DNA from: a bacterium
Lineage (GTDB): Bacteria > Zhuqueibacterota > QNDG01 > JAGLOF01
DNA: 64,000 nt
Assembly: GCA_016934955.1 (NCBI GenBank)
Contig: JAFGRY010000005.1
Location: 27,967-91,966, forward strand
Direction: 5' to 3'
The translations under genes were made by a program, and so were the position numbers. This document shows, piece by piece, positions 16,303-42,059 of the stretch (positions are counted from its first letter, which is position 1; each line of letters opens with the position of its first letter). The notes beneath the pieces are model-generated. The model had not been told where the DNA came from, made no database searches, and saw only the letters and a list, made by a program, of their open reading frames with translations.

Positions 16303-16326
16303 AATTTTCCTCCTCAACAGTTAAAA

Positions 16327-16342
16327 TGCAGCATGTACCCCG
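16327..16342 (-). promoter_or_regulatory. Weak candidate sigma-54 (-24/-12) promoter upstream of the 821-aa gene
   Basis: The minus strand reads CGGGGTACATGCTGCA. The GG and GC doublets have the correct 10-nt spacing and a TGCA -12 element, but the -24 element (CGGGGT vs TGGCAC) is poor. It lies 24 nt upstream of ATG 16302. Confidence 0.2.
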
Positions 16343-16489
16343 GTCACCTGATATACCGCCATCCGGGTGACCCTGAAAAAAGTATCAAATGTGTTTTCTT
16401 CACCCCCTCTCAACAGATATGTATTGTATGTCAGCATTCCAGTTGTCATGATACGAAACATGTCGCGTCTTTTTCAGGCTGTGTGCCGG

Positions 16490-18100: not shown

Positions 18101-18139
18101 CGGTCACCCGGGAAGATAGGATATTAAAACAACATGAAA

Positions 18140-18155
18140 AGCAACAAGTATACCA
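18140..18155 (-). promoter_or_regulatory. Candidate sigma-54 (-24/-12) promoter of the SSS symporter
   Basis: The minus strand reads TGGTATACTTGTTGCT, against the consensus TGGCAC-N5-TTGCW. The GG and GC doublets are correctly spaced and the TTGCT -12 element is complete. It lies 39 nt upstream of ATG 18100. A sigma-54 enhancer-binding protein is encoded at 40589..42043. Confidence 0.5.
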
Positions 18156-18350
18156 CTATCCTGGATCATTGTAAATACGTTACTTATGCACCTTTTGGGC
18201 CTCGTATAAACCGGCGATCATTATCAAATCGAATATCCGTCATTATTAAAATAATAACAGCACGGTGTTCCGTATCGCAGCGCCCGCCCGGTTTTTCAGG
18301 AGCATATCTCTGCTGGATTCTCTTTTCCCCGCCGCGGGCCGGCGCCGCCG

Positions 18351-19808
18351 TCAGTACACCAGGGTCTGTATCGCGTGCGGCTGAATGGTGAACACCGCCT
18401 GCCGCTCCTCGACGGTCAGCATGTATCGTATCGCCTCATCGCTACGGTTCATCACCACCGTTGCCAGGCTGCCGTCGGTATTGAGAAATGATGTTGCCAG
18501 AAGGTGACTCCGGCTGGGAGCGGTGCTGACACGCCTGGCCCCCGGGCGAATGAATTTGGAAAAATGGCCGATATAGTAATACGCGAGGGTGTAGTGAAGC
18601 CTCCCGGCGGGCAGATCGGCATGCATGGGGGCGAAACAGTAGTTGCCCACATGGTTGGGACCGCCCCGCTCGTCGAGCAGGATGTTCCAGTCGGTCCACC
18701 CCACCGTCCCCCGGTTGAAATCGCTGATCATGGAACGGCCGTACCGTTCGGCGTTCTTCCAGGACTGATAATGACCCGGCGTGAAGCTCTCAGCGCACCC
18801 TTCGGTGAATATAAGTTGTTTGTCGGGAAACGCCTCCCAGACCGCCGTCAGGTTGTCGAACATCGGTTCCCCCCCGGCCCAGGTCTCATACCAGTGGAAC
18901 CCGATGCCCCAGACGTATTGTGCGGCTTCCGGATCAGACAGGATGGTATTGGCACGATGAACGATGAGATCCCTGTTGTGGTCCCAGACGATGATCTTCC
19001 TGTCCCCCAGCCCTTCCCGCTTCAGCGTCGGTCCCAGATAGTCCCGCAGGAAATCCCGCTCCTCTTCCGCCGTGTAGATACACGACTCCCATCGCTGCGT
19101 GGCCATGGGCTCGTTCTGCAGGGTCAGGCCCCACACCGGGATCCCTTCGTCCTCATAGGCACGAATGAATTTGACATAGTAATTCGCCCAGGGCTGATAC
19201 CATTCGGGCAGGAGCGAGCCGCCCTGCAGCATGCTGTTGTTGCTCTTCATGAAGGCCGGCGGGCTCCAGGGACTGGCGTAGAGAGTGAGGCTGCCGCCGG
19301 CGGTCTCCATGGCGCGCCTGATCATGGGAATCCGGTATTCTCTGTCATGAGCGATGCTGAAGGTCGTCAGGGCGCTGTCACCCTCTTCCACGTAGGTATA
19401 ACTGGCGCTGCTGAAATCACAGCTGTGAATCGGTACCCTCACCAGGGTGTAGCCGATGCCGTGTTCAGGATCGAAATAGGCCCGCAGCACCTCCTGCTGC
19501 TGTTCCGGGGAGAGGGCCGCGAAGACCTCCGCGGAGACGTCGGTTATCGCCCCCCCGATTCCCAGAAATGTCTGAAACTGTTTGCAGGGATTGACGAACA
19601 CGGCGATCTCATATTCGAACGGCTGCCGCGCCTGCGAAAACGGCTCCGGCCCGGAAAGGTGCAGCCGCTTCGCCGAGCCTGATTCGGTCGTATAGACGGC
19701 CACCCGGTCCCTTCCGGACGGCGACGGAGTATCATCCTCGACGCGGCACCCGGCGCCAAAAGCCGCCGCAAGCGCCAGACACATGCCTGCCATGCTATAT
19801 ACCTTCAC
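18351..19808 (-). CDS. GH30 glycoside hydrolase (glucosylceramidase-like; candidate beta-1,6-glucosidase), lipoprotein
   Basis: The ORF-track N-terminus (to 20075) overlaps the upstream AKR gene and is Arg/Gly-rich. Plausible starts are GTG 19808 (5 nt after AAGGAGG), ATG 19826 or ATG 19793, giving the lipoprotein signal ..MAGMCLALAAAFGAGC. GH30 strings include FLGIGGAITD, YASPWSPPAFMK and GLTLQNEP. Confidence 0.85.
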   Translation of the reverse strand: MKVYSMAGMCLALAAAFGAGCRVEDDTPSPSGRDRVAVYTTESGSAKRLHLSGPEPFSQARQPFEYEIAVFVNPCKQFQTFLGIGGAITDVSAEVFAALSPEQQQEVLRAYFDPEHGIGYTLVRVPIHSCDFSSASYTYVEEGDSALTTFSIAHDREYRIPMIRRAMETAGGSLTLYASPWSPPAFMKSNNSMLQGGSLLPEWYQPWANYYVKFIRAYEDEGIPVWGLTLQNEPMATQRWESCIYTAEEERDFLRDYLGPTLKREGLGDRKIIVWDHNRDLIVHRANTILSDPEAAQYVWGIGFHWYETWAGGEPMFDNLTAVWEAFPDKQLIFTEGCAESFTPGHYQSWKNAERYGRSMISDFNRGTVGWTDWNILLDERGGPNHVGNYCFAPMHADLPAGRLHYTLAYYYIGHFSKFIRPGARRVSTAPSRSHLLATSFLNTDGSLATVVMNRSDEAIRYMLTVEERQAVFTIQPHAIQTLVY

Positions 19809-19858
19809 CTGACCCTCCTTTTCCATCGGCCTTCCGCCGTCTCCGGCAGCGCCGGGAT

Positions 19859-20848
19859 TCACCGTATCAGTGATTCGATCTCCGCCATCTCTCCGGCCGT
19901 CAACGGCCCGAACTCCATGGCCGCTGCATTTTCGGTCACCTGCGCCACCGTCCTGAACCCGGGGATCGGAATCGTCTTCGGACTGCGGGCCCAGAGCCAG
20001 GCGAGGGCGCCCTGGGAAACGGTTCTGCCGTTGCCGGTGAGCACCGCCTTTACCGCATCCCGTTTCTCCAGCCATTCGGGATTCGGGGTGCCGTTCCTGA
20101 AATATTTCATCCAGTCCGGGGCCTTTTCGCCGCGGACATCATTCATGGCGGCCTTCGTGGCGGCGGTATACGTTCCGGTCAGCAGGCCCATGGCCAGCGG
20201 GCCCCTGTTGATGGCCGCCAGATCGTGCTCTTCACACACGGCGATCACATCCGGATTGTCATCGAGCACGTTCAGCTGCAGCTGAATCGCCGTACAGTGC
20301 TCCCCTTCGGCAAACACCCGGGCCCGGTCGGCGAAATCGGTGCTCCACCCGTAACTTCGTATTTTGCCTTCGGCAACCAGCATCTCCAGCGTCTCTCTCA
20401 CCGGCACCGCCTTATCCGCTGGATAGCCGTTGTCATGGAACTGGTAGAGATCGATATAATCGGTATCGAGGCGGCGCAGGGACGCATCACAGGCGGAGCG
20501 TATCCCTTCCGGAGTCACATCCGATCCCGTCACCTGCCTGGTTTCCTCATTGAAAACGGCGGTGAATTTCGTTGCGATAACGACATCGGACCTGCGGGTT
20601 CCAAGCGCTTTCCCCAGCACTTTTTCACTGTGGCCGGCACCGTAGACGTTGGCCGTATCGAAAAAGGTCACGCCCAGATCGAGGGCCGCGTGTATGGCCC
20701 GGACAGATTCTCTGTCATCCACTTCACCCCAGCCGTGGGGGGTTTCCCCCTCCCAGAAGGGGCCGCCGATGGCCCAGCAGCCAAGCCCCATGGCACTGAC
20801 CTCAATTCCCGATCTCCCCAAAAACCGTTTCATTCCATCCTCCTTCAC
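19859..20848 (-). CDS. Aldo/keto reductase family oxidoreductase
   Basis: 329 aa with AKR signatures: GRSGIEVSAMGLGCWAIGG, FFDTANVYGAGHSEKVLGKAL, DYIDLYQFH, SYGWS and IPIPGFRT. An internal ATG at 20833 (MKRFLGRSG) is an alternative start. Confidence 0.9.
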   Translation of the reverse strand: MKEDGMKRFLGRSGIEVSAMGLGCWAIGGPFWEGETPHGWGEVDDRESVRAIHAALDLGVTFFDTANVYGAGHSEKVLGKALGTRRSDVVIATKFTAVFNEETRQVTGSDVTPEGIRSACDASLRRLDTDYIDLYQFHDNGYPADKAVPVRETLEMLVAEGKIRSYGWSTDFADRARVFAEGEHCTAIQLQLNVLDDNPDVIAVCEEHDLAAINRGPLAMGLLTGTYTAATKAAMNDVRGEKAPDWMKYFRNGTPNPEWLEKRDAVKAVLTGNGRTVSQGALAWLWARSPKTIPIPGFRTVAQVTENAAAMEFGPLTAGEMAEIESLIR

Positions 20849-20855
20849 GCTTCTG

Positions 20856-21935
20856 TTATCGCTCCGGCATCAATTCAGGATACCGGTCGTACATCACTTG
20901 TTTCGCTTTCCGGTCGACGGTGAACAATCCCCAGTGTTTTTCCGCCCCCAGCGGGTTCAGATCGGGATTGCCGTCGGGTTTCCAGTCTTCATCGAACGCT
21001 TCAAAAAAGAACGCGGTAATATTCATCTCTGCGGCCCAGTCATAGAGCTCGCGGAAATAGCGGGCCTGTTTCTCCTCGCTCGCCCGCTCCCCGAACTCAT
21101 TGGCAATGGTAGCCCAGCCCGCTTCCCCGATGATCATGGGACTGTCCGGAATCGTCTTCCTGACCTCCTGAATGTTCTCGATGGTGAAAGAGAGGCCTTC
21201 ATCGATATCCTTTCCTTCCCAGAGCGGGTAGGTATGCACCATGATGAAGTCGACCACCTCGGCCAGCGGAGCCCCGTGGTCCCGCCACCAGGCGAAATTG
21301 TCGGCAACGGTAACCGGCTGCTCGATCGCCGCCTGCACCTGCCGCACATAGGCGACAACCGATTCCAGGGGCACCATGTGGTCGTTCCAGCTGACCAGCG
21401 CCTCGTTCCCGATGTTCACCGCAACCACGATATCGTTATACTCGTTGGCCAGCCTGATGGTGTTGTCGATCTGCCGTTCGTTTTTCCGCCGGTTGGCGTC
21501 CAGCGTTTCCTGCGGAATCGGTCCGCTCAGCCACCAGCACCCTTCGTGATTGCTGAATTCTGCGTCGAGCCAGGCTCCCAGCAGCACCTTCATCCTGATG
21601 CCGTGGTCCCTGATTACCTTCAGAACCATCTCGGAGTTTTCATTGGAATCGTAGAGCCTGATCAGATTGAACAGATCGTCTTTGCTCAGGATCCGCAGAT
21701 CTTCCAGAATTTCCGCTTCGGACGGATTGACGGCGCCGCTGCCGCGGTCGGGATGCTGGCCGTGCCTGAAACCGGAGTAGGCCACCGCCCGCACTTCACC
21801 GGCGAGCAGATGGCGCTTCTGCTGTTTGACGGCTCCGCTGATCGGGGTGTCGCTGGTGCACCCTGAAAACAGAAACAGGGCCAGGAACAGCATCGCTGCG
21901 GATAATCCGCAGGCGGGTATGCCGGTGGATTTCAT
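20856..21935 (-). CDS. GH17-like beta-1,3-glucanase/transglycosylase, lipoprotein
   Basis: 359 aa with lipobox LFLFSGC. The TIM-barrel pattern fits GH17: AVAYSGFRHGQ, acid/base candidate VNIGNEALV, nucleophile candidate IIGEAGWAT, and FEAFDEDWK..EKHWGLF. Confidence 0.75.
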   Translation of the reverse strand: MKSTGIPACGLSAAMLFLALFLFSGCTSDTPISGAVKQQKRHLLAGEVRAVAYSGFRHGQHPDRGSGAVNPSEAEILEDLRILSKDDLFNLIRLYDSNENSEMVLKVIRDHGIRMKVLLGAWLDAEFSNHEGCWWLSGPIPQETLDANRRKNERQIDNTIRLANEYNDIVVAVNIGNEALVSWNDHMVPLESVVAYVRQVQAAIEQPVTVADNFAWWRDHGAPLAEVVDFIMVHTYPLWEGKDIDEGLSFTIENIQEVRKTIPDSPMIIGEAGWATIANEFGERASEEKQARYFRELYDWAAEMNITAFFFEAFDEDWKPDGNPDLNPLGAEKHWGLFTVDRKAKQVMYDRYPELMPER

Positions 21936-23227
21936 GGGTCTCTCCTTCCTTGATGTGCTTTCACATAAAATGGAATGTTTGCGTGGGCGCCGCTGCCGCT
22001 GTTGTCATGCGCATACACGAACAGACGGTAGGGGCCCTCGCTTCGGGGGACGGTAAACGTGAGTGAAGCCGCCTGCGCGCTGATGCGCACCTCCTGCGCC
22101 GCCGGGGGCCGCATTTCCGCATCACCGCCCGTTCCCTTATCCGTGGTTTCATGCAGGATCTCCCACGCCAGCGTCAGCGTATCACCGTCCGGATCGCTGA
22201 CATCGGCGACGGCCCGGGCCTCTCTTCCCGGCTGCAGGACGATACTGTCCGCCGCCCGTTTCCCTTCCAGTTCCAGGGAAACGAGACGGGGCGCCCGGTT
22301 TTCAGGCCAGTTCCCCTTCCAGAGCCGGTGCATCACATCCACCGCTTCCGTCTTCTCCCCCTCCGGAAGAAACATGCTGTACCAGGTGGCGGTGCGTTCC
22401 TGCTTGGAGCCCCAGAGAAAGACATAGCTGCCGAGACAGAGCGGATCGTTTTCAATATAATCGTTGTATTCTCTCAGATAGAGATCCGCTTTCTCGCTGC
22501 TGGTGAACTCAATGGGTTCGTCCCAGGAGGTTCTTCCGACCTCCCAGTGTCCGAAGGTGCCCCACTCGCCCACTATGTAGGGGCCCTTCCACCCGTACTC
22601 CCGGATGACCCGGGGAAGCGCCGACAGGGCGGCGTAACAGTTAACGCCGAGAATATCGATGCTGGGGCACCTCTCCTGAATATAGGCGACCTCTTCTTTC
22701 TCGATGAACGCCGTCACGGTCATGGTTGGATGGCGTCCGTCAACCTCATGGATATAGCGGGCCACCTCTTCGACCGCGTTCCAGACCGCGGGGTTGGTGT
22801 AGTTGAGATCGAGCTCGTTGCCGATGCCCCAGACGAGCAGAGCGGGATGATCCTTGTAGGCGAGCACCGCTTTTTTGATCCGCTCGAACTGCCGGCGCAC
22901 CGTTTCGGGATCACTGTAATCGAATCCCTGCCGCTCCTGGTCGAGCCAGATGCCAGCGCAGACGGTAAGTCCCAGCGCCTCAGCCCGGGAGAATGCCTCT
23001 TCCCACTGATCGCTCCCCCAGGTCCTGACCGAATTACCGCCGTATTCGGCAAGGATATCGTAGTGGCCGGTTATTCCGGCGCCCTTAATATAGAAGGCCT
23101 CGCCGCCGCGGAACAGCCGGTATCCCGCTTCTGTATTGCGCACCTCCACCCGCACCGCATGATCCTGGCTGCTGGCGGCGGCCGCCGCCAGCGCGATCAG
23201 CAGTATCAGCGTCACTGTTCTTCTCAT
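21932..23227 (-). CDS. Clan GH-A glycoside hydrolase with C-terminal Ig-like domain (possibly GH158-like endo-beta-1,3-glucanase)
   Basis: The likely start is ATG 23227 after GGAGG (MRRTVTLILLIALAAAAASSQ). TIM-barrel motifs include LLVWGIGNELDL (acid/base) and IVGEWGTFG (nucleophile). A C-terminal ~110-aa beta-sandwich is present (..VADVSDPDGDTLTLAWEI..YRLFVYAHDNSG). The subfamily assignment is a guess from architecture. Confidence 0.6.
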   Translation of the reverse strand: MRRTVTLILLIALAAAAASSQDHAVRVEVRNTEAGYRLFRGGEAFYIKGAGITGHYDILAEYGGNSVRTWGSDQWEEAFSRAEALGLTVCAGIWLDQERQGFDYSDPETVRRQFERIKKAVLAYKDHPALLVWGIGNELDLNYTNPAVWNAVEEVARYIHEVDGRHPTMTVTAFIEKEEVAYIQERCPSIDILGVNCYAALSALPRVIREYGWKGPYIVGEWGTFGHWEVGRTSWDEPIEFTSSEKADLYLREYNDYIENDPLCLGSYVFLWGSKQERTATWYSMFLPEGEKTEAVDVMHRLWKGNWPENRAPRLVSLELEGKRAADSIVLQPGREARAVADVSDPDGDTLTLAWEILHETTDKGTGGDAEMRPPAAQEVRISAQAASLTFTVPRSEGPYRLFVYAHDNSGSGAHANIPFYVKAHQGRRDP

Positions 23228-23262
23228 ACCATCCTCCGCCTCTTCGACATGGGTCACATCGT

Positions 23263-25440
23263 TCAGTCCCTGAACTCGAATGTGCCGCACAGGCCTCCCG
23301 CGGAATCCCCGCCGATCCATACCTGGAACGTGCCGGGTTCGGTCACCTCTTCCAGGCGCGGATTGTGAAAGGAGAGATCGGCTGCGCTCAGGGTGAAGGT
23401 CACGGTCATCGATGCTCCGGGCTTCAGCCGGACCCGGGTGAATCCTTTCAACTCGCGTACCGGACGGACCACGCTCGCCACCAGGTCGCGGACGTAGAGC
23501 TGCGCCACCTCCTCCGCTTCAACGGACCCGGTATTGGTGACAAGCGCGGAGACGGTGAGGGCTCCCTCACTGCCGATCCCGTCCGCCGAAAGCTGCAGAT
23601 CGCTGTACTCGAAGGTCGTGTAGGAAAGACCGTATCCGAAAACGAACCGGGGCTCGTACCCGGCATCTATGTAATGGGACTCATTGCCCAGGGAATTCTG
23701 CACGGCCCGCACCGGAATGTCGTCGATATGGGTAAAGTGCTCTTTTACGGGAGGCCGGCCCGTATTCCGGTGACTGTAATAGATCGGCACCTGCCCCGCC
23801 ATTTTCGGGAATGTCACGGGCAGTTTTCCGGAAGGGCTCTCCCTGCCGAACAGCAGGTCGACGATCGCCGGTCCGCCCATGGTGCCGGGGTGGAACATGA
23901 AAAGAATGCTGTCCACCTGGTCCAGGACACCGTCGAGGATGAGCGGCCGGCCGGCCATGATTATCAGGACGAGCGGTGTTCCGCAGGAAGCGAGTTCATG
24001 AATCAGCTCCTCCTGGGCGCCGGGAAGCGAAAAGTCCGCCCGGCAGTGGGCCTCGCCGGTGATGATCGCCTCCTCTCCCATGAACAGCAGTACCGCATCG
24101 GATTCCCGCGCCAGCGCGACCGCCCTGCTGAAATCCGAACGATCGGTTGAGCGGGAGATCTCCAGCACCGGCAGGTAGTCGATCCGGATGGCATCGCCCG
24201 CATAGTCCCGCAGCGCCTGAAGCGGCGTCACCGTGTCATCGATATTTCTGTCGAATGTCCAGGTCCCCAGCTGTTCATGGGGATCGTCCGCCATGGGGCC
24301 GAACACCGCCAGCCGCGCGACCTCCGGAGCCAGGGGGAGCGCGCCCGTGCCGTTCTTGAGCAGGATGGCGCTCTGGAGCGCGGTTTTTCTGGCTGCGGCA
24401 AGATGTCCTGCGTTCAGCGGCGCCGGGAATTTCGCCGGATCGGTGTAGGGATCCTCAAAAAGACCCAGCCGGAATTTTACCCCAAGAATTCGGCGAACCG
24501 CGTCATCGATCAGTTCCGGCGCGAGCCTGCCCTCGCTCACCAGCGCCTCCAGATGCGTTTCATACACACGCGACGCCATCTCCATGTCCATGCCCGCCGT
24601 CATTGCTTTTTCAGCGGCCTCCCTGTCATCGGCGCAGTATCCGTGGATGATCATTTCCTGAATGGAATTATAGTCGCTGATCACGAATCCCGGGTATTGC
24701 CACTCTCCCTTCAGAACGGTGCGGAGCAGGAACGCATCGCCGGTGCAGGGAATGCCGTTCAGATCGTGAAATCCGCTCATGAACGAGGCCACGCCTTCAT
24801 CCACACATGCCTTGAAGGGCGCCAGATACACATCCCGCAACAGTGTCTCCGGAATGTGCGCGCTGTTGTAATCCCGCCCGCCCTCGGCCGCGCCGTACCC
24901 GGCGAAGTGTTTCGCGCAGGCGGCGATGGAACCGGGAGCGGCGAGATCCTCTCCCTGAAATCCCCGGACCATGGCCGCGCCCATCACCGAGGTCAGGCAG
25001 GTATCTTCGCCGAAGCTCTCGGCGATGCGGCCCCAGCGGGGATCTCTGGCGATGTCGACCATGGGCGCCAGTGTCCAGTTGACTCCTGTCGCCGCCGCTT
25101 CCAGGGCGGCGATGCGCGCGCCCTGCTCCACCAGTTCCGGATTCCAGGTGGCGGCCAGTCCCGGATTTATGGGGAACAGCGTTCTGAACCCGTGAATGAC
25201 ATCCCGGGCGATGAGGAGCGGGATGCCGAGACGGCTTTCCTCAACGGCGATTTTCTGGATTCTGTTGACCGTATCGGGATCCGCCTCATTGAGAACGGAC
25301 CCGACGCTGCCGCCGCGAATGCGGTCTTCATTGCCCTCCGCGCGGTCGCACTGCATCAGCTGCCCGATCTTTTCCCGCAGGGTCATCCGCCGCAGCAGCG
25401 ACTCCGCCCTGCTCTCACTGTCGTCTTTTTTGGTCATCAT
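23263..25440 (-). CDS. GH3 beta-glucosidase (BglX-like), no signal peptide (cytoplasmic)
   Basis: The likely start is MMTKKDDSESRAESLLRRMTLREKIGQLMQ at 25440. GH3 strings include GIPLLIARDVIHG, PRWGRIAESFGEDT, KHFAGYGA and GFVISDYNSI (nucleophile Asp region). A C-terminal FnIII-like domain is present. Confidence 0.9.
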   Translation of the reverse strand: MMTKKDDSESRAESLLRRMTLREKIGQLMQCDRAEGNEDRIRGGSVGSVLNEADPDTVNRIQKIAVEESRLGIPLLIARDVIHGFRTLFPINPGLAATWNPELVEQGARIAALEAAATGVNWTLAPMVDIARDPRWGRIAESFGEDTCLTSVMGAAMVRGFQGEDLAAPGSIAACAKHFAGYGAAEGGRDYNSAHIPETLLRDVYLAPFKACVDEGVASFMSGFHDLNGIPCTGDAFLLRTVLKGEWQYPGFVISDYNSIQEMIIHGYCADDREAAEKAMTAGMDMEMASRVYETHLEALVSEGRLAPELIDDAVRRILGVKFRLGLFEDPYTDPAKFPAPLNAGHLAAARKTALQSAILLKNGTGALPLAPEVARLAVFGPMADDPHEQLGTWTFDRNIDDTVTPLQALRDYAGDAIRIDYLPVLEISRSTDRSDFSRAVALARESDAVLLFMGEEAIITGEAHCRADFSLPGAQEELIHELASCGTPLVLIIMAGRPLILDGVLDQVDSILFMFHPGTMGGPAIVDLLFGRESPSGKLPVTFPKMAGQVPIYYSHRNTGRPPVKEHFTHIDDIPVRAVQNSLGNESHYIDAGYEPRFVFGYGLSYTTFEYSDLQLSADGIGSEGALTVSALVTNTGSVEAEEVAQLYVRDLVASVVRPVRELKGFTRVRLKPGASMTVTFTLSAADLSFHNPRLEEVTEPGTFQVWIGGDSAGGLCGTFEFRD

Positions 25441-25501
25441 CAGTAAATTCCCGTTCCTGCTGTTTTCACATACCTCTACCGTGCACGGCCGCGCCCGGCG
25501 C

Positions 25502-28500
25502 TCAGGACGACTTGCGGGGGAGCGGCCACCAGACATCGATTCTCCGGATCTCCTCGGTTCTCCGGAAGATCGACCCGCTCAATGAGGCGGCGAGTTCCGG
25601 GCCCGGCATGGATTCACGCCGGCCGTCCGAGCGGGTAATGGTGATGCTGCGGGCGTCCGCCCGATGGTAGACAACAGGCACCTGGACAACGGTAAAGGCC
25701 AGAGAGCCCGGCTCCAGGAGCAGCGACTGTTCGCTGCCCTCGACATCGATATAGGTGAAGGTCTCCTCCCGCGGGAGATACTCTTCGTCGCGCAGCAGGG
25801 AGGAGGAAAAACCGATCCGGCCTTCCCGGACCGTCACCCCCAGTTCGCCGAACCGCGAGAGGATGTCCTCCTTTACCTGGCCGGTCATCCCGGGCTGCTG
25901 GGCGCCGAGATGGGCGGGTGTGTGCGAATAGGGATCGGTGGGAAATGCACCGTACGCATCCGGAGATTTGGTAACGCCGATCCCCGTTCTGATCTCGTAG
26001 TAGCGGTCGCGCAGATCCTGCTGCACCGGTGCGGGTGCTCCCTCGCGGACGGCCCGGTAAAAGCATTCCTTGACCGCCAGAAGCAGCTTCGAGACCATGT
26101 GCCAGTAGACGGATCCCAGTCCTTCATACTTGAAAAAAGTTCCGGAACGCCCGGTAAACGACTGGTGATCGAACATCTCCTCGTACATAGTCACCAGCAG
26201 GGCCTTCTCCCGCTCGAAATCGAGGGCGGGATCATCGATGGCCACACCGGTCAGGGCCTCCCTGAGCATGGCCGCATTACGGAAGGAACCGTTGAAATGA
26301 AAGCCGCCTTCGCCGTCCCGGACCACGATGCGTTCATCCCCGGCAGCAGCGAGCGCCGGGATGAGGCGCGACCGTCCAACCGCCCCGGCGGGGATGGTGT
26401 TCTTCTCGACGAACCGGGGCAGCGTTTTGTCGGGATAGAGCAGATAGGCCGCCTGATCCTCCCGGTAGAGGCTGCTCGCCCGCAGCGCATCGAGCACCGC
26501 GACGCTCTCTTCCGGGGTAAGATATCCGGAACTGAGCACCGCGACCTGTCCCTCCAGCATCTCGGAGAGACGGCGGATGGACACGGCGCCTTCGGTCAGG
26601 GTTATCAGATTATAGGCGTGATACAGGCCGTCTTCTCTCCTGCTGGCGGCAATGGTGTGATCGACATACTCCAGCGCCTCCCGGCAGAGGTCCTGCAGCG
26701 ATCCGGGGCCGATCCCCCGTTTCCCGCCGGGGAACCCGCGGCTGTAGACCGCTTCACGGTAGACGCTCCCCGCTGTTCCCAGCATATCCATACACGCTCT
26801 CCGGTCGCCGTTCGACATACTCCCGGTGAGCAGGGAGCGGTTCTCGCCGAGAATGCGGACGATCGAGTCCAGGAAATCGGCGGCCGCGACGGAAACGGCC
26901 ACCGGCTCATCGAGCAGGGAAAAGAGCTCCCGGCAGAAGGAAAGGTGCCGTCTCAGGTAAAAGAGCGTCACCATCGAAACGCCGTATCCCACCAGCGCAT
27001 TATTGGCGTCGTTCCACTCCGGCCGCTGGGTGTTCATCCAGATCCCCGCCCCCGGAATGAAGTTGGAAAGTTTCACCAGCAGCGGTACCAGCAGCTTTTC
27101 CGTGAGAGTGACCAGGTAGAGGTCCTGCTCACCGGTGAGCACGCATTTCCCGTCGGAACCCAGAGCGGCCGTGCGCTGTTCGATCGTCTCTTCGAGATCC
27201 GCGTCGAAGGTGACGGTGTGGTGAGGATCGGCGCAGATCGCTTCGTAGGACGCGATACGATAGGGCACATTGGCATAGGTGAACATATCCCGGGCGAGCA
27301 GCGTCCGCAGGGCCCCGGGGTGGTAGTGACGTGAGAGTTCGAGCAGCTTGAGCAGATAGATGATCTGATGGTCACCCCAGTATCCTATATAGGACCAGGC
27401 GTCGTCCGGGTCGATAATCTCCCATTCAAACCCGTCCCGGCCGATCCGGTAGGGGTTGTATCCGTCGGGGGTGGAACCGTTGACGAACTTGGTGATCATC
27501 GCTTCGATATAGCCGGGAAAGGAGAGGGCCAGGGCTTCCCAGTTCTGAAAGATGTCCCGCCAGTTGCCCTCGTAATTGAGATTCCTGCCGCCGAACGCAT
27601 CCTTGATATCGATGGAAAAGCGGTTCCAGGGCCGGCTGGGATCACCGTGACGGCGGCTGAATGTCAGCGGCAGGTACTCATACCCGAGTTTTTCCAGGGC
27701 GGGATCGTTCCTTTCCCGGAGCGCTGCCAGCAGGGCCTCGTAATCCATTGCCGCCGGCAGGGACTGCAGATAGCCGCGGTGAGTGCCGGCTGTTCTCGAT
27801 GAGGCCTTTTCAGCGAAACGAATGAAATCGGCGGTTTCAATGTGGTACCCGCCGTCAAAAATGCCGCCCCGCATGACGTTGAAGAGCACGTTGGCAAAAT
27901 GCCGCGAGGTGCTCAGCCTGTCTGCGGTTTTTTGCAGACCGTCGGCGGCGGCAACGGTTCGCACCAGGTTTTCCGTCCCCGCCCTGACATCGGCTTCGAT
28001 GTCACCGGCCCGGTCAGCGGCCGACCTGAGATACGCTGCAAGATCGACCACGCCCGCGGTATCGATGGCGACATCGGCGGCGATGTACCAGACCCGTTCA
28101 GCGGCCGCCGGAACTTCGACGCGCGCGTGGATGAAATAGGCGCCCCGCACGCCCCGCACATCGGTTTCCCCGCTGACGGGGAGACCCCGGCGGAACCGGT
28201 CCAGCTGCCCTGACGAGAGCAGCACCGCATCCGGCTGCAGTCCCGCGGACCAGACAACCGTCGCCCGCATCGCTTCACTCGGCTCCGCTTTGTCTACGGG
28301 AATCGAGCTCAGCGAATAGATACCGATGCCGGTGTCTTCCAGAAGTTCGTTTTTCTTGTAAGCGTCCGCCAGGGTGCTGTATTCCATCTGGAACCGCTGG
28401 TTGATGCCGCAGGCGAGAATGTTCTGAATACCGTCGAGCACCGTCACGTTCGCGGCGGTGGTGGAGTGATTGAGCAGACGGGAGCGTTTGATGAACCCGA

Positions 28501-28987
28501 AGCGCTCGCTGTTCATCCAGGCGTAGCTGAACGTGAGACCGAGATCATGGTTGATCTCTTCAAAGAGCAGTTTGTTCCCCCTGATGTTCTTGTAGCAGTT
28601 GCGGACCGTCTCGTACACATCCGGACATCGCTTCGAAAACGGTTCCCAGAGATACCGCTTACCCCCGGCATGCACGATCACCAGGGTCGCGCTGCCGGTG
28701 ATCCCGGTACTGTCGAGAATTCTGTCATCGGTGTCATAGGGAAACAGCGCGGTATCCGCGTTCCTCCGCCCCGCGGAGAGCGCGCCGCTGGACCAGATGA
28801 ACATCCAGTGATCCGAGTCGCTGACGATGCTCATGAAAAAGGGATCCATGCGGTCGTAATGTGCTATCTTGTAGTATGTCTCTCCCTCGAGTTCGACATA
28901 CTCACCCGAGACGGTCCGGTCCCCGGGGCGCAGAAGCGCATCGCCGAGGAAGAGCGGATCGGCTGCTTCAGTGCGGCGGTCATGCAT
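25502..28987 (-). CDS. Large cytoplasmic protein; candidate GH94-clan (GH149/GH161-like) beta-1,3-glucan/oligosaccharide phosphorylase
   Basis: 1161 aa with no signal peptide. Its start overlaps the transporter stop by 8 nt. Two motifs occur in the same order as the GH94 active-site motifs I recall: NWRDIFQNWE (aa 475-484, cf. GFRDSNQD) and RPEWNDANNAL (aa 655-665, cf. RADWNDCLNL). The function is not established. Confidence 0.35.
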   Translation of the reverse strand: MHDRRTEAADPLFLGDALLRPGDRTVSGEYVELEGETYYKIAHYDRMDPFFMSIVSDSDHWMFIWSSGALSAGRRNADTALFPYDTDDRILDSTGITGSATLVIVHAGGKRYLWEPFSKRCPDVYETVRNCYKNIRGNKLLFEEINHDLGLTFSYAWMNSERFGFIKRSRLLNHSTTAANVTVLDGIQNILACGINQRFQMEYSTLADAYKKNELLEDTGIGIYSLSSIPVDKAEPSEAMRATVVWSAGLQPDAVLLSSGQLDRFRRGLPVSGETDVRGVRGAYFIHARVEVPAAAERVWYIAADVAIDTAGVVDLAAYLRSAADRAGDIEADVRAGTENLVRTVAAADGLQKTADRLSTSRHFANVLFNVMRGGIFDGGYHIETADFIRFAEKASSRTAGTHRGYLQSLPAAMDYEALLAALRERNDPALEKLGYEYLPLTFSRRHGDPSRPWNRFSIDIKDAFGGRNLNYEGNWRDIFQNWEALALSFPGYIEAMITKFVNGSTPDGYNPYRIGRDGFEWEIIDPDDAWSYIGYWGDHQIIYLLKLLELSRHYHPGALRTLLARDMFTYANVPYRIASYEAICADPHHTVTFDADLEETIEQRTAALGSDGKCVLTGEQDLYLVTLTEKLLVPLLVKLSNFIPGAGIWMNTQRPEWNDANNALVGYGVSMVTLFYLRRHLSFCRELFSLLDEPVAVSVAAADFLDSIVRILGENRSLLTGSMSNGDRRACMDMLGTAGSVYREAVYSRGFPGGKRGIGPGSLQDLCREALEYVDHTIAASRREDGLYHAYNLITLTEGAVSIRRLSEMLEGQVAVLSSGYLTPEESVAVLDALRASSLYREDQAAYLLYPDKTLPRFVEKNTIPAGAVGRSRLIPALAAAGDERIVVRDGEGGFHFNGSFRNAAMLREALTGVAIDDPALDFEREKALLVTMYEEMFDHQSFTGRSGTFFKYEGLGSVYWHMVSKLLLAVKECFYRAVREGAPAPVQQDLRDRYYEIRTGIGVTKSPDAYGAFPTDPYSHTPAHLGAQQPGMTGQVKEDILSRFGELGVTVREGRIGFSSSLLRDEEYLPREETFTYIDVEGSEQSLLLEPGSLAFTVVQVPVVYHRADARSITITRSDGRRESMPGPELAASLSGSIFRRTEEIRRIDVWWPLPRKSS

Positions 28988-31172
28988 CGCTTTTTCTCTT
29001 TGCCAGGTCTTGCTCTATCTTTTTCATGGTGGTATCATCGAGTTCATAAAAGAACGCGGCGATCACGGCGATCAGCGTTCCGGCAGCGGGAATAAAACTC
29101 ATCATCAGCCTGATACCGTGCAGCGCCCCGGCGGTCTGCTCCACATTCGGCTGGAAATGGAAGATCGAAAGCAGCCATCCGGCCAGGCCGCCGCCCAGGG
29201 CCATGCCGAATTTCTGGGCAAACGTGGCGGCCGAAAAGACAAGGCCCGTGGCCCGCCGCCTGTTCTTCCACTCGGAATAGTCGGCCGTGTCGGCATACAT
29301 CGCCCAGAGCAGCGGCGCCTGGGGAGCCATGACAAAGGAAATCAGAATGTGAAGAGCGAAGACCAGGGTTATCTGTTCCCTGGGCACGTAGTAGAAAAGC
29401 GCCGTCAGAACGGTGGTGAGTCCCATTACAATAATATAAAATTTCTTCTTCCCGAGACGACGGGACAAAAACTCCGTACAGGCGACACCGGCGATAACCG
29501 CGACAGTCCCCAGCACCATGAAGAGCGAAGCAAGGAGCTCGCTGCCGACATAGTACTTGAAGTAATACATGATCGCTCCCATCCGGATGATCACATAGCC
29601 AAGCGTGAAGATGCCCATGACCAGCAGTATCATCCAGGGCCGGTTACGGGAGAGATCTTTCAGGTCGTTTCTCAGTGAGGTTTGCTGATCCCGGGGCGGC
29701 TGTACCCGTTCCTTTGTCGTCCGGAAGGTAATGTAGAAGAGGATGCTGGCAAGGACCCCGAAGGCGATGAGGGTGAACTGGAACCCTCTGGCGACATCCA
29801 CCTTTTTCACCGAATAGGTAATCGCATCGCCGTCCAGATCCTTGAAGGTGCCGGAGAGATCGAGCGAATAGTCCCCGAATCCCTCATTCAGCACCAGGTT
29901 TTCGGGAGGATTGAAGAGCGCCGGCGCATTGTTACCGGCGGCGGTCACACTGACGTTCATCCCGGCAGTCGCGAACCCGCCATGCCCGTCGGCCGCGGTT
30001 ATCTCTATCCTGGAAATGCCGGATTCTCTGAACCGCAGCACCAGGTCACTTCCGGATATACGGGCCGACACCGCCGCCCCGTTCCCGGAAACGGCCGTAT
30101 AGTTCAGCGCATCCCCGTCCGTGTCGGTGAAGAGAGTGGCCAGGTCGATGGTTTCCGGTTCCGGCACGCGGGCTCGTTCCATATCGGCCGGCGGAGAGAC
30201 GACAACGGGCCGATGGTTTCCGGCGGCATTGACGTACACCGAAAAGGATTGATTCTTTTGCCCGTAGGTGTTGTCACGGGCACTGACCGTAACCCGTGAG
30301 CATCCGGGCCCCTTTTCCTTCAGCTCCAGCCGGCTTCCCGACAGTGCGGTCTCGATGACATCGGCGTCCGCGTTGTCCACGCTGTACGTCAGTGATTCAC
30401 TGTCACTGTCCGTGAAAACCGTATCCAGGTCGAGAACGACGGATGAGAATCCCTGCTCGAGCTGCAGATCCTCAAGGGGAGTGGTGACAACGGGCGGGAG
30501 TTCTCCTGTCCTGTTTATGTTGACGAGAAATTCGTTCGCCGCGGTGTTCGTACCATCATCGGCTTCGATAATGAATTTGGCCGTGCGGGTATCGACCTCC
30601 TGAATCGTCAGGACGGTGCCGGAAAGAGTGAACCCCTGATGCACGTTCCCGGTTGTGTTCACCAGCACCAGTGTGGCCCCCTGCACGATAAAGGCGCCCA
30701 CGAAGGCGAGGACGAACCGGTAGGTGGAGGCGCTGGTTCTCTGCATGGAATCCGGAGAGAGAACACCCATGAGCGCGGAATAGGGAATATTGATGGCCGT
30801 ATACGCCATCATCATCAGGATGTACGTGATATAGGCATAGACGATCTTGCCGCCGATATCGAGGTCGGGCGTCGTGAACATGAACACGCCGATGACCGCC
30901 ATGGGGATCATCATCCAGATGAGATAGGGACGGAATTTGCCCCATCTGGTATTCGTTCTGTCCGCGATGATTCCCATCATGGGATCATTGACCGCGTCCC
31001 AGAAGCGGGAAATCATGAAAAGGGTGCCGGCCACTGCCGCCGGAATACCGAACACATCCGTGTAAAAGAAAAGGAGAAAATTGATAAACATTTGAAAATA
31101 CAGATTGGAGGCGGTATCTCCAAGACCGTAGCCGATCTTCTCCTTCACCGAGAGTTTGTCACTCATGTCCAT
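28980..31172 (-). CDS. GPH-family (MelB/XylP-like) glycoside:cation symporter with a large inserted periplasmic repeat domain
   Basis: 730 aa. GPH signatures include GYGLGDTASNLYFQ, RFWDAVNDPMMGIIADRTNTRWGKFRPY and a central RTTKER loop. There are 12 hydrophobic segments, plus a ~290-aa hydrophilic insert between segments 5 and 6. Confidence 0.85.
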   Translation of the reverse strand: MDMSDKLSVKEKIGYGLGDTASNLYFQMFINFLLFFYTDVFGIPAAVAGTLFMISRFWDAVNDPMMGIIADRTNTRWGKFRPYLIWMMIPMAVIGVFMFTTPDLDIGGKIVYAYITYILMMMAYTAINIPYSALMGVLSPDSMQRTSASTYRFVLAFVGAFIVQGATLVLVNTTGNVHQGFTLSGTVLTIQEVDTRTAKFIIEADDGTNTAANEFLVNINRTGELPPVVTTPLEDLQLEQGFSSVVLDLDTVFTDSDSESLTYSVDNADADVIETALSGSRLELKEKGPGCSRVTVSARDNTYGQKNQSFSVYVNAAGNHRPVVVSPPADMERARVPEPETIDLATLFTDTDGDALNYTAVSGNGAAVSARISGSDLVLRFRESGISRIEITAADGHGGFATAGMNVSVTAAGNNAPALFNPPENLVLNEGFGDYSLDLSGTFKDLDGDAITYSVKKVDVARGFQFTLIAFGVLASILFYITFRTTKERVQPPRDQQTSLRNDLKDLSRNRPWMILLVMGIFTLGYVIIRMGAIMYYFKYYVGSELLASLFMVLGTVAVIAGVACTEFLSRRLGKKKFYIIVMGLTTVLTALFYYVPREQITLVFALHILISFVMAPQAPLLWAMYADTADYSEWKNRRRATGLVFSAATFAQKFGMALGGGLAGWLLSIFHFQPNVEQTAGALHGIRLMMSFIPAAGTLIAVIAAFFYELDDTTMKKIEQDLAKRKSDA
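29787..30659 (-). repeat. Tandem cadherin-like/He_PIG-type Ig repeats (half + 2 full + half) encoded inside the GPH symporter gene
   Basis: Full repeats cover aa 225-320 and aa 321-415. The recurring signatures are TDSDSESLTYSV, TDTDGDALNYTA and KDLDGDAITYSV. The flanking half-repeats (aa 181-224 and 416-459) align to the second and first halves respectively. Confidence 0.8.
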
Positions 31173-31264
31173 GGTCTCCTTAGAGTTACTGAATATCTCA
31201 CATCACCAGTTGTCTGTGCACTGTCCTCTTGCAATCCGCCGGCACGGCGTTCCCGCCGGACGTC

Positions 31265-33442
31265 CTATTCAGCGATCGTTATCGTCACCCGTTCCGGCAC
31301 AGCGTCGGACGCATTTCCCGCGTAGAGCGAGTAGGCCCCGGGTTCCAGGTTCCACCCCGGAATCGATTCGTCATACCAGGCGAGATCATTGGTGTCGATG
31401 GTCAGCGTCACTGTCCGCTTCTCTCCCGGCTCCAGATACGTTTTCCGGAACGCTTTCAGCTCCTTGACCGCCCGCTCCACCGGAGAACCGGGCTTGCCCG
31501 CGTAGACCTGAACCACTTCCGCTCCCGCCCTGTCACCGCTGTTGCGAACGCTGCAGGTGACGATTATCGTTTCTCCCGCGGCATAGGATGGCTTGTCGGT
31601 GCGCAGGTCGGATATGGTAAACGACGTATAGGACAATCCGTGCCCGAACGCGAAGAGCGGCGTGATCTTCCTGGTATCATACCAGCGGTAGCCCACGAAG
31701 ATGCCCTCCTGGTAAACCTGCCGGCCGTCTTTCCCCGGATAGGACCGCTCGCCGTAAACATGCGCCGGACTGTCTTCGAGGCGGGCGGGAAAGGTAAACG
31801 GCAGTTTTCCGGAAGGATTGACATCACCGCTGATCACATCGGCGAGGGCGCGGCCGGCTTCACTGCCGAGGTACCAGGCCTGCATCACTCCCCGCACCCG
31901 GGAGAGCCAGGGCATGGACACGGCGTTGCCGCTGATCAATACGACGCCGATGTTTTCGCTGGCGCCGGTCAGCTCCTTCAGGAGGTCATCCTGGCCGAAG
32001 GGAAGGGCCAGGTCCCGCCGGTCCCCCGCCTCGCAGTCCTGACGGTAATTCTTGTTCAGGCCGCCGATAAAGAGCACTACGTCCGCGGCGGCGGCAGCCT
32101 GGACGGCGGCCCGGCGCAGCGAATCGGCGTCAAGCGGCGACGGCAGCTCGCGGCCGTAGGCCGGCGGCCCCGAGGCATAGCCCGGGGCGTGGATGATGGT
32201 CGCGTTTCGGAATCGCTTCCGCACTCCTTCCAGAGGTGATATCTCATGCTTCGCTTTCAGTTCCGACGACCCGCCTCCCGCGGTCATGGAACGGGTCGCG
32301 TTCTCTCCGATAACGGCGATGGTCATCTTTCTTTCGGGATCGAGGGGGAAAAAACCGTTCTCGTTCTTCAGCAGGACGATGCCCTCACGGGCAACGTTCC
32401 TGGCGACCGAGAGATGTTCCTCGTTATTCATGCGCCCCAGCGGGCGACCGGGATTCATGGTAGTGCGCAGCATCAGCCGCAGAATACGGCGAACTTTCTC
32501 ATCCACCACCGATTCGGCGATGTCACCGCTCCTGATCATCTCCCGGAACGGTTTCGCCAGGTAGTAGTAATCGTAGGCATTTTTTGTCGATGCGGTCAGC
32601 CCGTCGGTACCGGTGCCCATTTCGATATCGAGGCCGTTAAGGGCCGCTTCTCTGGTGTCGTGCACGGCGCTCCAGTCGCTGATCACCACTCCGTCGAAAC
32701 GCCATTCCCGTTTAAGAATCCTGGTGAGCAGCAGATCGTTCTGGCTGCAGTACTGTCCGCGGAAGCGGTTGTAGGCGCTCATCATCGACCAGAGCCCCCC
32801 CTTCTGCACCGCGGCTTTATAGGCGGGCAGATAGATCTCGTGCAGGGCTCTGTCACTGAGATCAACGTCGATGAAAAAGCGCCACTGCTCCTGGTTATTG
32901 AGCGCGAAATGTTTCAGACAGGCGGCGACGCCGTTCCGCTGCACCCCCTCTATGTAGGGCACCACCATCATCGAGGCCAGGTGGGGATCCTCACCCATAT
33001 ACTCGAAATTACGGCCTGAAAGGGGCGTGCGGTAGATATTGATCCCGGGACCGAGCAGCACGTCTTTCTTCCGGTAACGGGCCTCTTCGCCCAGGGCGAA
33101 TCCGTATTCCCCGGAGAGCCCCGGATTGAACGTTGCGGCCAGGCAGGTCAGTGCGGGGAACGCCGTTATGGAATCACTGGTCCAGCCGGCGTAATTCCAG
33201 CTGTCCCAGCTGATCTCGGCCCTGACACCGTGGGGGCCGTCGGCCATCCACAGTTCCGGAATCCCGAGGCGGGGCACTCCCGGTGAACTGAATTTCGACT
33301 GGGCGTGACACATGGCCACCTTTTCCTCCAGGGTCATGAGCGCGAGGAGGCTGTCTATGGTCTGTTCCATGCGCGTTTCCTGTACCTGTGCCTGTGTGCC
33401 GACGGTACAGAACAGCAGTATGGCAATGATCCTGTTCTTCAT
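31265..33442 (-). CDS. GH3 beta-glucosidase, secreted/periplasmic
   Basis: The likely start is MKNRIIAILLFCTVGTQAQ at 33442. GH3 strings include LTLEEKVAMCHAQS, GPHGVR, KHFALNNQE and GVVISDWSAV. A C-terminal FnIII-like domain is present. Confidence 0.9.
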   Translation of the reverse strand: MKNRIIAILLFCTVGTQAQVQETRMEQTIDSLLALMTLEEKVAMCHAQSKFSSPGVPRLGIPELWMADGPHGVRAEISWDSWNYAGWTSDSITAFPALTCLAATFNPGLSGEYGFALGEEARYRKKDVLLGPGINIYRTPLSGRNFEYMGEDPHLASMMVVPYIEGVQRNGVAACLKHFALNNQEQWRFFIDVDLSDRALHEIYLPAYKAAVQKGGLWSMMSAYNRFRGQYCSQNDLLLTRILKREWRFDGVVISDWSAVHDTREAALNGLDIEMGTGTDGLTASTKNAYDYYYLAKPFREMIRSGDIAESVVDEKVRRILRLMLRTTMNPGRPLGRMNNEEHLSVARNVAREGIVLLKNENGFFPLDPERKMTIAVIGENATRSMTAGGGSSELKAKHEISPLEGVRKRFRNATIIHAPGYASGPPAYGRELPSPLDADSLRRAAVQAAAAADVVLFIGGLNKNYRQDCEAGDRRDLALPFGQDDLLKELTGASENIGVVLISGNAVSMPWLSRVRGVMQAWYLGSEAGRALADVISGDVNPSGKLPFTFPARLEDSPAHVYGERSYPGKDGRQVYQEGIFVGYRWYDTRKITPLFAFGHGLSYTSFTISDLRTDKPSYAAGETIIVTCSVRNSGDRAGAEVVQVYAGKPGSPVERAVKELKAFRKTYLEPGEKRTVTLTIDTNDLAWYDESIPGWNLEPGAYSLYAGNASDAVPERVTITIAE

Positions 33443-33515
33443 TTTCGCTGTTTCTCCACTCACGGACGCGAACCCCGCGGTCCGCCCGTATAATATAATT
33501 ATTCAGCTCCGCCGG

Positions 33516-36500: not shown

Positions 36501-36536
36501 ACGCACCGGTGTTAGCCTTTCGGACAGCTTATTCAT
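33516..36536 (-). CDS. Clan GH-A (GH5-like) glycoside hydrolase with inserted CBM4/9-like module and T9SS C-terminal sorting domain
   Basis: 1006 aa with a signal peptide. The TIM-barrel start reads IRFFGTNLS..MGFNLVRFHHMDNPWG. Candidate catalytic residues are VEIVNENS (acid/base) and PFIISEYNH (nucleophile). A CBM-like insert is present (GSFENNPNLRRWQLEEHEGAAA..WHVQWKQAGLSLEQDSVYTLSFLARS). The CTD reads PFPNPAV..RITVLNSIGRTV..GLYLVVFQ. Confidence 0.6.
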   Translation of the reverse strand: MNKLSERLTPVRMRQVLRCLFLLQVITAPLSAQNFSGGFRFYLPPRDTIPGDFLPSFEQRFLSDEDAISIGPLGHFRRSGERIRFFGTNLSAGACFPQKDDAASIAGRMRKMGFNLVRFHHMDNPWGDHIFAPGNGTRQLDPEMLDRVRYLLYQLRRNGVYANINLHVSRTFSETDGVADAEDILNYGKGVTLFDPQLIALQKEYAAALLTGISPYTGTALVDDPVMAMVEIVNENSLYRMWRDDALKPQREGGDLIDRHDLMLDILWREYLTARYPSTDSLRTAWRSAVSAGEGEELVYRGSFENNPNLRRWQLEEHEGAAAVMAVDAADPGEGTVSAKLSVQAANGTSWHVQWKQAGLSLEQDSVYTLSFLARSDGPKSPAVSLMKETAPWTMYGTFSFDVFDQWQAYTFSFKAPETNTGDVRLSFQLGGSIGTFWFDLISLRTSSIRGLGDDESFASENIKRIDYSDALVYSDGRVRDMSMFYLALQNDFFADMYDYLKNDLGVKVPIIGTNWNVGPADLVVQSICDIIDNHGYWDHPSFPDAPWSPTDWLIANEPMVTSFQGGTIPLLMGGVGSTDKPFIISEYNHAFPNRFQTEGPLFLAAYGSFHDLDGLLMFDYAGDNGSWEADLIEGFFDIQRNPAMMSLMPSCAAAFRNGLITTAVETIELRYTEDDILLLPKHDAMSWTGPETFPRQLALEHAVRNASFTAAEAASGGMSALSPAGPPWTSDTGQLNWDPGAGVFTAVSPAFIAAAGYLDSFSGGEAGIMQIQEASGFFTLTWLSLSGDPLASAPFSLLTLSSRAQNHGMIWDGTGTVHDRWGSEPVTMKPESCRLRLGISADTLLVYPLDERGNGAGTGYLYEKGNGDFFEIEIDQTAGRTVWFGLEARGVGDEPGNGESESELPLMSVDEPFPNPAVPGASGEATWLSYRLSASARVRITVLNSIGRTVRSIWNGNRGAGEYLHRWDGDDTEGRKVGSGLYLVVFQAETGGRRTRTVKKCAVMH

Positions 36537-42043: not shown

Positions 42044-42059
42044 TGGGTGCCCGGTCCTT

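Follow-up and report, generated by a model that had tools for sequence, protein, structure and literature searches.

A full-length GH149 protein, hitherto labelled hypothetical, as a probable cytoplasmic beta-1,3-glucan phosphorylase in a laminarin-type gene cluster of a sediment bacterium

What is the role of an 1161-residue protein that is encoded between a sugar symporter and a beta-glucosidase and stands in public records, like nearly all of its close homologues, under the label 'hypothetical protein'? The question is raised by a stretch of bacterial DNA of 64,000 nucleotides (nt) from a sediment metagenome (contig JAFGRY010000005.1, positions 27,967 to 91,966), hereafter called the window. 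The gene in question occupies window positions 25502-28987 on the minus strand as a single open frame with an ATG start, coding for 1161 amino acids (aa), the stop codon being included in the coordinates. An earlier note, made from the sequence without database searches, had suggested a phosphorylase of beta-1,3-glucan that acts in the cytoplasm and belongs to the clan of glycoside hydrolase (GH) family 94, as part of a distant or new family. As detailed below, the protein belongs over its full length to GH149, a known family, and its relation to GH94 and GH161 is at clan level only. With a probability of about 0.9 we regard it as a cytoplasmic inverting phosphorylase of family GH149, clan GH-Q, namely a beta-1,3-glucan or laminaridextrin phosphorylase, the reaction itself being a prediction.

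The family assignment is carried by profile, sequence and fold comparisons. The NCBIfam equivalog model NF058639.1 'GH149_beta_1_3' ('1,3-beta-D-glucan phosphorylase, GH149 family') matched the protein with 1624.6 bits at a cut-off of 1150, residues 24-1152 aligning with profile positions 3-1131 of 1134, and the same match was found in the genome search. A phmmer search against PDB retrieved the characterised beta-1,3-oligosaccharide phosphorylase Pro_7066 (entries 6hq6 and 6hq8) with E=0 and 1216 bits, aa 22-1152 being aligned with chain residues 35-1167, and a profile made from 34 homologues scored 1712 bits against 6hq6. In the parts of the alignment with 6hq6 that were displayed, including the regions of the inserts Dom 1 and Dom 2, single-residue gaps only were seen. 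The search of Pfam-A gave zero matches at E<=10, because Pfam holds no GH149 model, and this empty result explains why the earlier note saw two motifs only.

An AlphaFold2 model, for which 34 homologues were used (mean predicted local distance difference test score, pLDDT, 83.9; predicted template modelling score, pTM, 0.86), comprises a beta-sandwich, a helical linker, a helical barrel and, at the C-terminus, a jelly roll, which correspond to the four domains published for Pro_7066 (PMC6771811). The N-terminal beta-sandwich domain (aa 27-309, window 28061..28909, minus strand, as are all the features below unless stated otherwise) is all-strand in the model and matches Pro_7066 residues 1-303; the linker (aa 310-347, 27947..28060) consists of helices 310-322 and 326-347 and matches residues 304-341; the mostly helical (alpha/alpha)6 catalytic domain (aa 348-1048, 25844..27946), which carries the inserts Dom 1 and Dom 2 specific to GH149, matches residues 342-1045; and the C-terminal beta jelly-roll domain, with model strands at 1051-1154 (25526..25837), matches residues 1046-1156. 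Foldseek superposed the model on 6hq6 with template modelling (TM) scores of 0.93/0.96 and a root-mean-square deviation of 2.4 Å over 1133 columns at about 48% identity, all 1133 of the 1133 residues of 6hq6_B being covered. The chains of 6hq6 and 6hq8 took ranks 1-3, and ranks 4-38, all with probability 1.00, were held by GH161 and GH94-type phosphorylases, two cyclic-glucan-synthase phosphorylase domains among them; the first to follow 6hq6 was GH161 (TM 0.66/0.73), ahead of GH94 laminaribiose phosphorylase (0.58/0.72) and the remaining GH94 enzymes. The (alpha/alpha)6 catalytic barrel, common to GH94, GH149 and GH161 in clan GH-Q, is present in the model; it is the barrel that the earlier note had proposed to look for with Foldseek. 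The size of about 1000-1200 aa that the note gave for GH149 and GH161 proteins agrees with PDB chains of 1175 and 1046 aa.

The two neighbouring families are clearly set apart. GH161 (PDB 9qqk, 9gy9; PMC6484121) has the same clan-level fold and substrate class, but its members of about 1040 aa are only about 16% identical to the window protein, and the match covers only some 300 residues: the single sequence aligned at aa 535-787 and weakly at aa 434-515 (E 1.2e-9), the profile of 34 homologues gave E 1.6e-24, and no full-length similarity to GH161 was found, the match being a partial one to the catalytic domain with TM 0.66. GH94 enzymes, such as the laminaribiose phosphorylase PsLBP (6GGY/6GH3) and the cellobiose and chitobiose phosphorylases, likewise have the GH-Q fold and the RD/WND/His apparatus in common with the window protein, but the identity is 8-14%, the TM score on the query is 0.45-0.59, and neither Dom 1 nor Dom 2 is present in that family (PMC6771811). 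None of the GH94 chains in PDB was matched at E<=10 by the single sequence or at E<=0.01 by the 34-homologue profile. Such weak likeness to GH94, taken in the earlier note for divergence of this particular protein, is a known trait of the whole GH149 family (PMC6771811). Every sequence and structure comparison made here places the protein within GH149 and outside both GH94 and GH161.

The active site of Pro_7066 comprises the WND loop W651/N652/D653, where D653 is catalytic, the RD motif R470/D471, the phosphate-site residue H959 and E951, which contacts the donor mimic (PMC6771811). The numbering of the PDB chain is offset by 19 residues from that of the publication, as was checked by finding the correct letters for ten named residues. 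The equivalents in the window protein are W658/N659/D660, R477/D478, H963 and E955, and all the seven residues are invariant in 34/34 homologues (54-67% identity). They fall in three segments: NWRDIFQNWE (aa 475-484, 27536..27565), with the sugar 1-phosphate-recognising RD motif; the catalytic loop RPEWNDANNAL (aa 655-665, 26993..27025), which is identical in 6hq6 and carries D660 as the predicted catalytic acid; and EGLGSVYWH (aa 955-963, 26099..26125), with the donor hydroxyl contact E955 and the phosphate-site histidine H963. The first two segments lie at the residues given for them in the earlier note, and the RD and WND motifs of GH94 type that it gave as background, which GH149 has too, agree with the published account (PMC6771811); the alignment of catalytic and phosphate-binding residues that it had recommended finds all published active-site residues kept. 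What did not hold is its reading of the glutamate in EWND as a mark of divergence, since position 657 is Glu in 28 of the 34 homologues and in 6HQ6 (Asp in the other 6/34), i.e., E657 is the majority state of GH149. Judging from the alignment, catalysis falls to the second Asp (D653 of Pro_7066, D660 here) and not to position 657. The 1175-aa sequence P0054, which had been suspected of being the tagged PDB sequence, was found to be a different homologue that carries DWND.

The cytoplasmic location is predicted from the N-terminus. The ATG of the GH149 gene (28987-28985) and the TGA of the symporter gene (28982-28980) produce an overlap of 8 nt with the string ATGCATGA, the minus strand reading AAGAGAAAAAGCG-ATG-CAT-GA across the GH149 start; the overlap had been reported before, and the strand is the sole addition made here. 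This ATG is the only ATG/GTG/TTG in frame ahead of the conserved N-terminus, and the N-termini of homologues align about 6 residues downstream of it. A public gene call (P0002, 1143 aa) begins at a CTG 18 codons later (Leu19) and loses the segment PLFLGDALL, which aligns with the homologue N-termini (window 28931-28987); the ATG at 28987 was kept because the CTG call cuts conserved residues. Within the first 50 aa the maximal 12-residue Kyte-Doolittle mean is 1.20, as against 2.55-3.15 in the secreted neighbours, which bears out the lack of a signal peptide claimed previously; in the hydropathy scan neither a signal peptide nor a transmembrane segment was found, no 19-residue window exceeding 1.57. 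By this measure the protein is cytoplasmic and has no export signal.

The setting of the gene points in the same direction as its sequence. It lies within a long co-directional, tightly spaced run of minus-strand genes, the tightly packed part of which opens with a secreted GH3 (31265..33463; Pfam GH3 N, GH3 C and Fn3-like, signal-like N-terminus), preceded by a promoter-like TTGACC-N16-TATATT at 33519-33492 (a consensus match only). Next come the presumed substrate importer, a 730-aa GPH (MFS_2) cation:sugar symporter (28980..31172; Pfam MFS_2 4.8e-99 in two stretches, TIGR00792 gph 1.4e-119), and the GH149 gene itself (25502..28987). They are followed by a signal-less, presumably cytoplasmic BglX-like GH3 beta-glucosidase of 725 aa (23263..25440; Pfam GH3 N, GH3 C and Fn3-like; BglX model 664.3 bits, cut-off 666), whose Pfam domains and N-terminal hydropathy of 0.12 agree with the signal-less GH3 described there earlier. 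Its likely start is the ATGATG at 25440, 61 nt past the GH149 stop; a longer open frame, with a start at 25536 and an overlap of 35 nt with the GH149 stop, was discarded, since the Pfam domain sets in at residue 20 of the shorter protein and for the 32 additional residues there is no counterpart. Further along are a secreted GH158 endo-beta-1,3-glucanase relative of 431-462 aa (21932..23320, likely start 23227, MRRTVTL...; PDB 9oro 1.2e-105, 6pal 2e-80; signal-like N-terminus), for which Pfam gives a weak GH2_C match only, a GH17 beta-1,3-glucanase of lipoprotein type (20856..21935; Pfam Glyco_hydro_17), an aldo/keto reductase (19859-20848; the best NCBIfam match, a methylglyoxal reductase model, is far below its cut-off) and a GH30 of beta-1,6-glucosidase type, a candidate for debranching (18351..20075; Pfam Glyco_hydro_30 7.4e-77 and GH30C). 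The scan of 16000-34000 for promoters and terminators gave no sign that the run is interrupted between the symporter, GH149 and GH3 genes; terminator-like sites in this region were about as frequent as in shuffled sequence (19 vs. 14.8 +/- 4.4).

The outer parts of the cluster contain, on the upstream side, genes for a solute-binding protein, a histidine kinase and a sigma-54 activator (40589-44898), a GH5 with carbohydrate-binding module (CBM) family 6 and a FlgD_ig-like C-terminal domain (38371-40377; Pfam, the last domain by a weak match), another secreted GH3 (36529-38361) and a GH5-like protein with CBM4_9 (33516-36536). On the downstream side there are an SSS symporter (16490-18100), a CBM9 cargo protein of the type IX secretion system (T9SS; 13852-16317), a TonB-dependent receptor (10975-13794) and two GH16 (2049-4760); next to the receptor, a 1162-aa protein (7438-10926) has no Pfam match. 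Altogether, the window holds two GH16, a GH30, three GH3, two GH5-type enzymes, a TonB receptor and an SSS symporter in addition to the GH17 and the GH158 relative. Published bacterial GH149 clusters include MFS pfam13347, GH16, GH17, GH3, GH30 and TonB receptor genes (PMC5827456), and GH149 is routinely found among the genes of laminarin polysaccharide utilisation loci (PULs) in recent marine literature. By its gene content the locus is a typical laminarin-utilisation cluster of the type published for bacterial GH149. Together with NF058639.1 at 1625 bits, 6HQ6 at E=0 and TM scores of 0.93/0.96, this beta-1,3-glucanase-rich locus supports the functional part of the earlier proposal, a phosphorylase that belongs to the GH94 clan and acts on beta-1,3-glucan in the cytoplasm.

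The linkage of GH149 to symporter and beta-1,3-glucanase genes is conserved. GH149 is present as a single copy in the 4.4-Mb, 52-contig, ~90% complete genome from which the window comes and occurs in 9/31 genomes of the same order. In the nearest relatives (62-67% identity of GH149; contigs L087, L088, L089 and L090) the symporter and GH149 genes are adjacent in all four, and the pair is followed by GH158 and/or GH17, with GH17 following directly in L087 and GH158 standing directly after GH149 in L088 and L090. L088 keeps the whole order MFS_2, GH149, GH158, GH17, aldo/keto reductase, GH30, SSF symporter, CBM9/T9SS protein and TonB receptor, in L087 and L090 it is preserved in part, and GH17 has the same position in L087, L088 and L090. 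It is the adjacency that is conserved and not the 8-nt overlap, the relatives having gaps of 13-40 nt. The signal-less BglX-like GH3 is absent between GH149 and the next gene in L087, L088 and L090 and seems to have been added to the operon in this lineage. Two further features of these loci may be recorded. The aldo/keto reductase gene directly follows GH17 in the window, in L087 (14665-15639) and in L088 (14255-15229); in the window and in L088 it is GH30 that comes after it. An insert of ~270 aa, weakly matching the Big_9 Ig domain, splits the MFS_2 match of the symporter into two stretches (1 to ~190; ~460 to 713); the 730-aa form is found also in L087, L088 and L089, and L090 has a plain 454-aa form.

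The best homologues bearing names come from metagenome-assembled genomes (MAGs) of KSB1, Calditrichota, Ignavibacteria and Fidelibacterota, at 54-58% identity. In a FastTree phylogeny of 87 GH149 sequences the window protein grouped with its syntenic relatives; the supported clade around them comprises Ignavibacteriota, Fidelibacterota, Acidobacteriota and genomes of the same order and is separate from that of the Bacteroidota. Pro_7066 is nearest to Flavobacteria according to its authors (PMC5827456). The tree contained a few placements at odds with taxonomy. Full-length GH149 sequences were met in archaeal MAGs, L002 (Brockarchaeota) and P0043 ('Thermoproteota archaeon'), the former nesting next to Acidobacteriota, which suggests transfer from bacteria or mis-binning. 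The GH149 of L051, an 'uncultured Bifidobacteriaceae' MAG, is sister to a sequence from Limisphaerales (Verrucomicrobiota), and in the pair L010/L022 the Limnocylindrales (Chloroflexota) protein is tightly joined with an Acidobacteriota one; either recent transfers or binning errors would account for these two cases.

Among known phosphorylases the closest counterpart is Pro_7066 (PDB 6HQ6/6HQ8; PMC5827456, PMC6771811), which is of the same length class, has the same four domains and both GH149-specific inserts, bears identical RD, WND, Glu and His residues and an identical RPEWNDANNAL, and matches identically over NWRDIFQNWE. It likewise lacks a signal peptide, and its gene belongs to a beta-1,3-glucan utilisation cluster that also holds an MFS_2 transporter, GH3, GH16, GH17 and GH30. 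The loci differ in that the window has T9SS cargo proteins and a TonB receptor with no SusD in place of a SusC/D PUL, and the enzymes differ in ancestry, Pro_7066 belonging to a Flavobacteria-like clade and the window protein to a non-Bacteroidota FCB (Fibrobacterota, Chlorobiota and Bacteroidota)/Acidobacteriota clade. Pro_7066 is beta-1,3-specific and uses acceptors from glucose to laminarihexaose (Glc to G6) with nearly equal efficiency (PMC5827456); a laminaridextrin phosphorylase of broad chain-length range is the default expectation here. EgP1 from Euglena gracilis (PMC5827456) belongs to the same family and is likewise predicted to cleave beta-1,3-glucosidic bonds by inverting phosphorolysis, but, unlike the window protein, it is eukaryotic, and it prefers Glc and G2 as acceptors. 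EgP1 and Pro_7066 are 45% identical and differ in chain-length preference, both being strictly specific for beta-1,3-linked glucose (PMC5827456).

From these data we infer the following route, in which the reaction, its chain-length range, the order of steps and the identity of the supplying transporter are all predictions. Outside the cell, T9SS-secreted and surface enzymes (two GH16, two GH5-type and GH158) would cut laminarin-type beta-1,3-glucan, and the fragments would pass the outer membrane via the TonB-dependent receptor. In the periplasm GH30, GH17 and the secreted GH3s may debranch and trim them, and the GPH symporter would import the resulting laminari-oligosaccharides across the inner membrane. 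In the cytoplasm GH149 is predicted to take glucose from the non-reducing end: (Glc-beta-1,3)n + Pi -> alpha-D-glucose-1-phosphate + (Glc-beta-1,3)n-1, where Pi is inorganic phosphate, D660 of the W658-N659-D660 loop would act as the general acid, and R477/D478, E955 and H963 would hold the glucosyl and phosphate groups. Glucose 1-phosphate (Glc1P) could then be turned into glucose 6-phosphate by one of the phosphoglucomutase-superfamily enzymes, three genes for which are present in the genome, with one ATP saved per glucose as compared with hydrolysis plus kinase, and the neighbouring signal-less BglX-like GH3 may hydrolyse the remainder. Phosphorolysis of imported laminari-oligosaccharides, as proposed earlier, is a reading to which both the GH149 matches and the beta-1,3-glucanase families of the locus lend support at the level of sequence.

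Several observations weigh against this interpretation or narrow it. The AlphaFold2 model has pLDDT <50 at residues 445-466, 655-663, 945-957 and 1025-1033 (window ~25889-27655); the first three of these loops hold the invariant PSRPWN, WND and EGLG, the fourth overlaps the invariant QQPG, and the surrounding scaffold is above 90. The pocket geometry proposed here is accordingly based on homology to 6HQ6 and not on the model. Pro_7066, the sole characterised bacterial GH149, is only ~48% identical to the window protein, whose non-Bacteroidota branch is uncharacterised, as is its phylum-level lineage. The GH5 enzymes and the CBM4/6/9 modules of the locus could act on other beta-glucans. As for expression, a metatranscriptome contig of 151 nt (RNA-Seq run X5, belonging to the study that also produced the DNA run with the window) matches 26273..26423 without mismatches, its strand not being assigned, and two further contigs lie in the symporter gene; these data are weak evidence of in situ transcription of GH149, since the transcript support amounts to three short exact or near-exact contigs, for which DNA carry-over is possible.

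To the same group of observations belongs the surface oligosaccharide-binding site known from Pro_7066, which is kept only partly: E838, Y993 and E994 (the YE motif) and R1062 are retained as E843, Y997, E998 and R1066, K831 is conservatively replaced by R836, and Y841, E982 and E990 are changed to A846, A986 and D994. This site is not family-defining and, according to the authors of the Pro_7066 structure, is variable among GH149 members and poorly conserved in distant bacterial ones (PMC6771811). Because of its partial retention, the chain-length behaviour of the window protein may differ from that of Pro_7066. We give a low chance to the idea that this GH149 branch has a chain-length or branching specificity unlike that of Pro_7066 and EgP1, for instance towards beta-1,6-branched laminarin fragments, or a tight functional coupling with the symporter whose gene overlaps its start codon.

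A phosphorylase of GH149 fold could, in principle, act on something other than linear laminari-oligosaccharides; laminarin fragments with beta-1,6 branches, oligosaccharides of mixed beta-1,3/1,4 linkage or a different beta-1,3-linked sugar would be candidates. The separation of its clade from that of the Bacteroidota, with Pro_7066 near Flavobacteria, would be compatible with this, as would the non-conservative differences at 3/8 surface-site residues, the GH5, CBM4_9, CBM6 and CBM9 proteins in the locus and the fact that EgP1 and Pro_7066 diverge in chain-length preference at 45% identity. We nevertheless hold it to be quite unlikely, considering that the donor-site and catalytic residues are all invariant, that the score is far above the equivalog cut-off of NF058639.1, that the neighbouring GH16, GH17, GH158 and GH30 make up the canonical laminarin set, and that both GH149 enzymes that have been characterised show strict beta-1,3-glucose specificity. 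Very improbable, in our view, is a mainly synthetic function in vivo, i.e., the building of an intracellular beta-1,3-glucan store from Glc1P: the physiological role of the Euglena GH149 is unsettled, and Euglena has a beta-1,3-glucan biochemistry of its own (PMC5827456), but the gene studied here sits in a catabolic operon, overlaps that of an importer and has exo- and endo-beta-glucanase genes on both sides, and the published contexts of bacterial GH149 are all degradative (PMC5827456). The idea of a founder of a new, distant GH94-related family, or of a protein unrelated to phosphorylases, was suggested by the empty Pfam-A result, the mostly 'hypothetical' homologues and the undetectable sequence similarity to GH94, and has next to no chance, being refuted by the whole-length matches to NF058639.1 and PDB 6HQ6, by the 34-homologue profile and by Foldseek, which together make the protein an ordinary full-length member of GH149, a family for which Pfam has no model.

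Taking the protein, then, as a GH149 beta-1,3-glucan or laminaridextrin phosphorylase, the main value of the finding is the correct annotation of a protein called hypothetical in public records, and there is little beyond that: the gap is one of annotation, Pfam being without a GH149 model, and NCBIfam and CAZy already cover the family. An enzyme from an uncharacterised branch of GH149 could be a modestly useful additional biocatalyst for beta-1,3-glucan synthesis. For the biology of the organism, the assignment would place energy-saving phosphorolytic catabolism of laminarin in an uncultured sediment bacterium, and for the family it indicates that the operon of GH149, GPH symporter, GH158, GH17 and GH30 reaches past Bacteroidota and Proteobacteria into other phyla of the FCB group.

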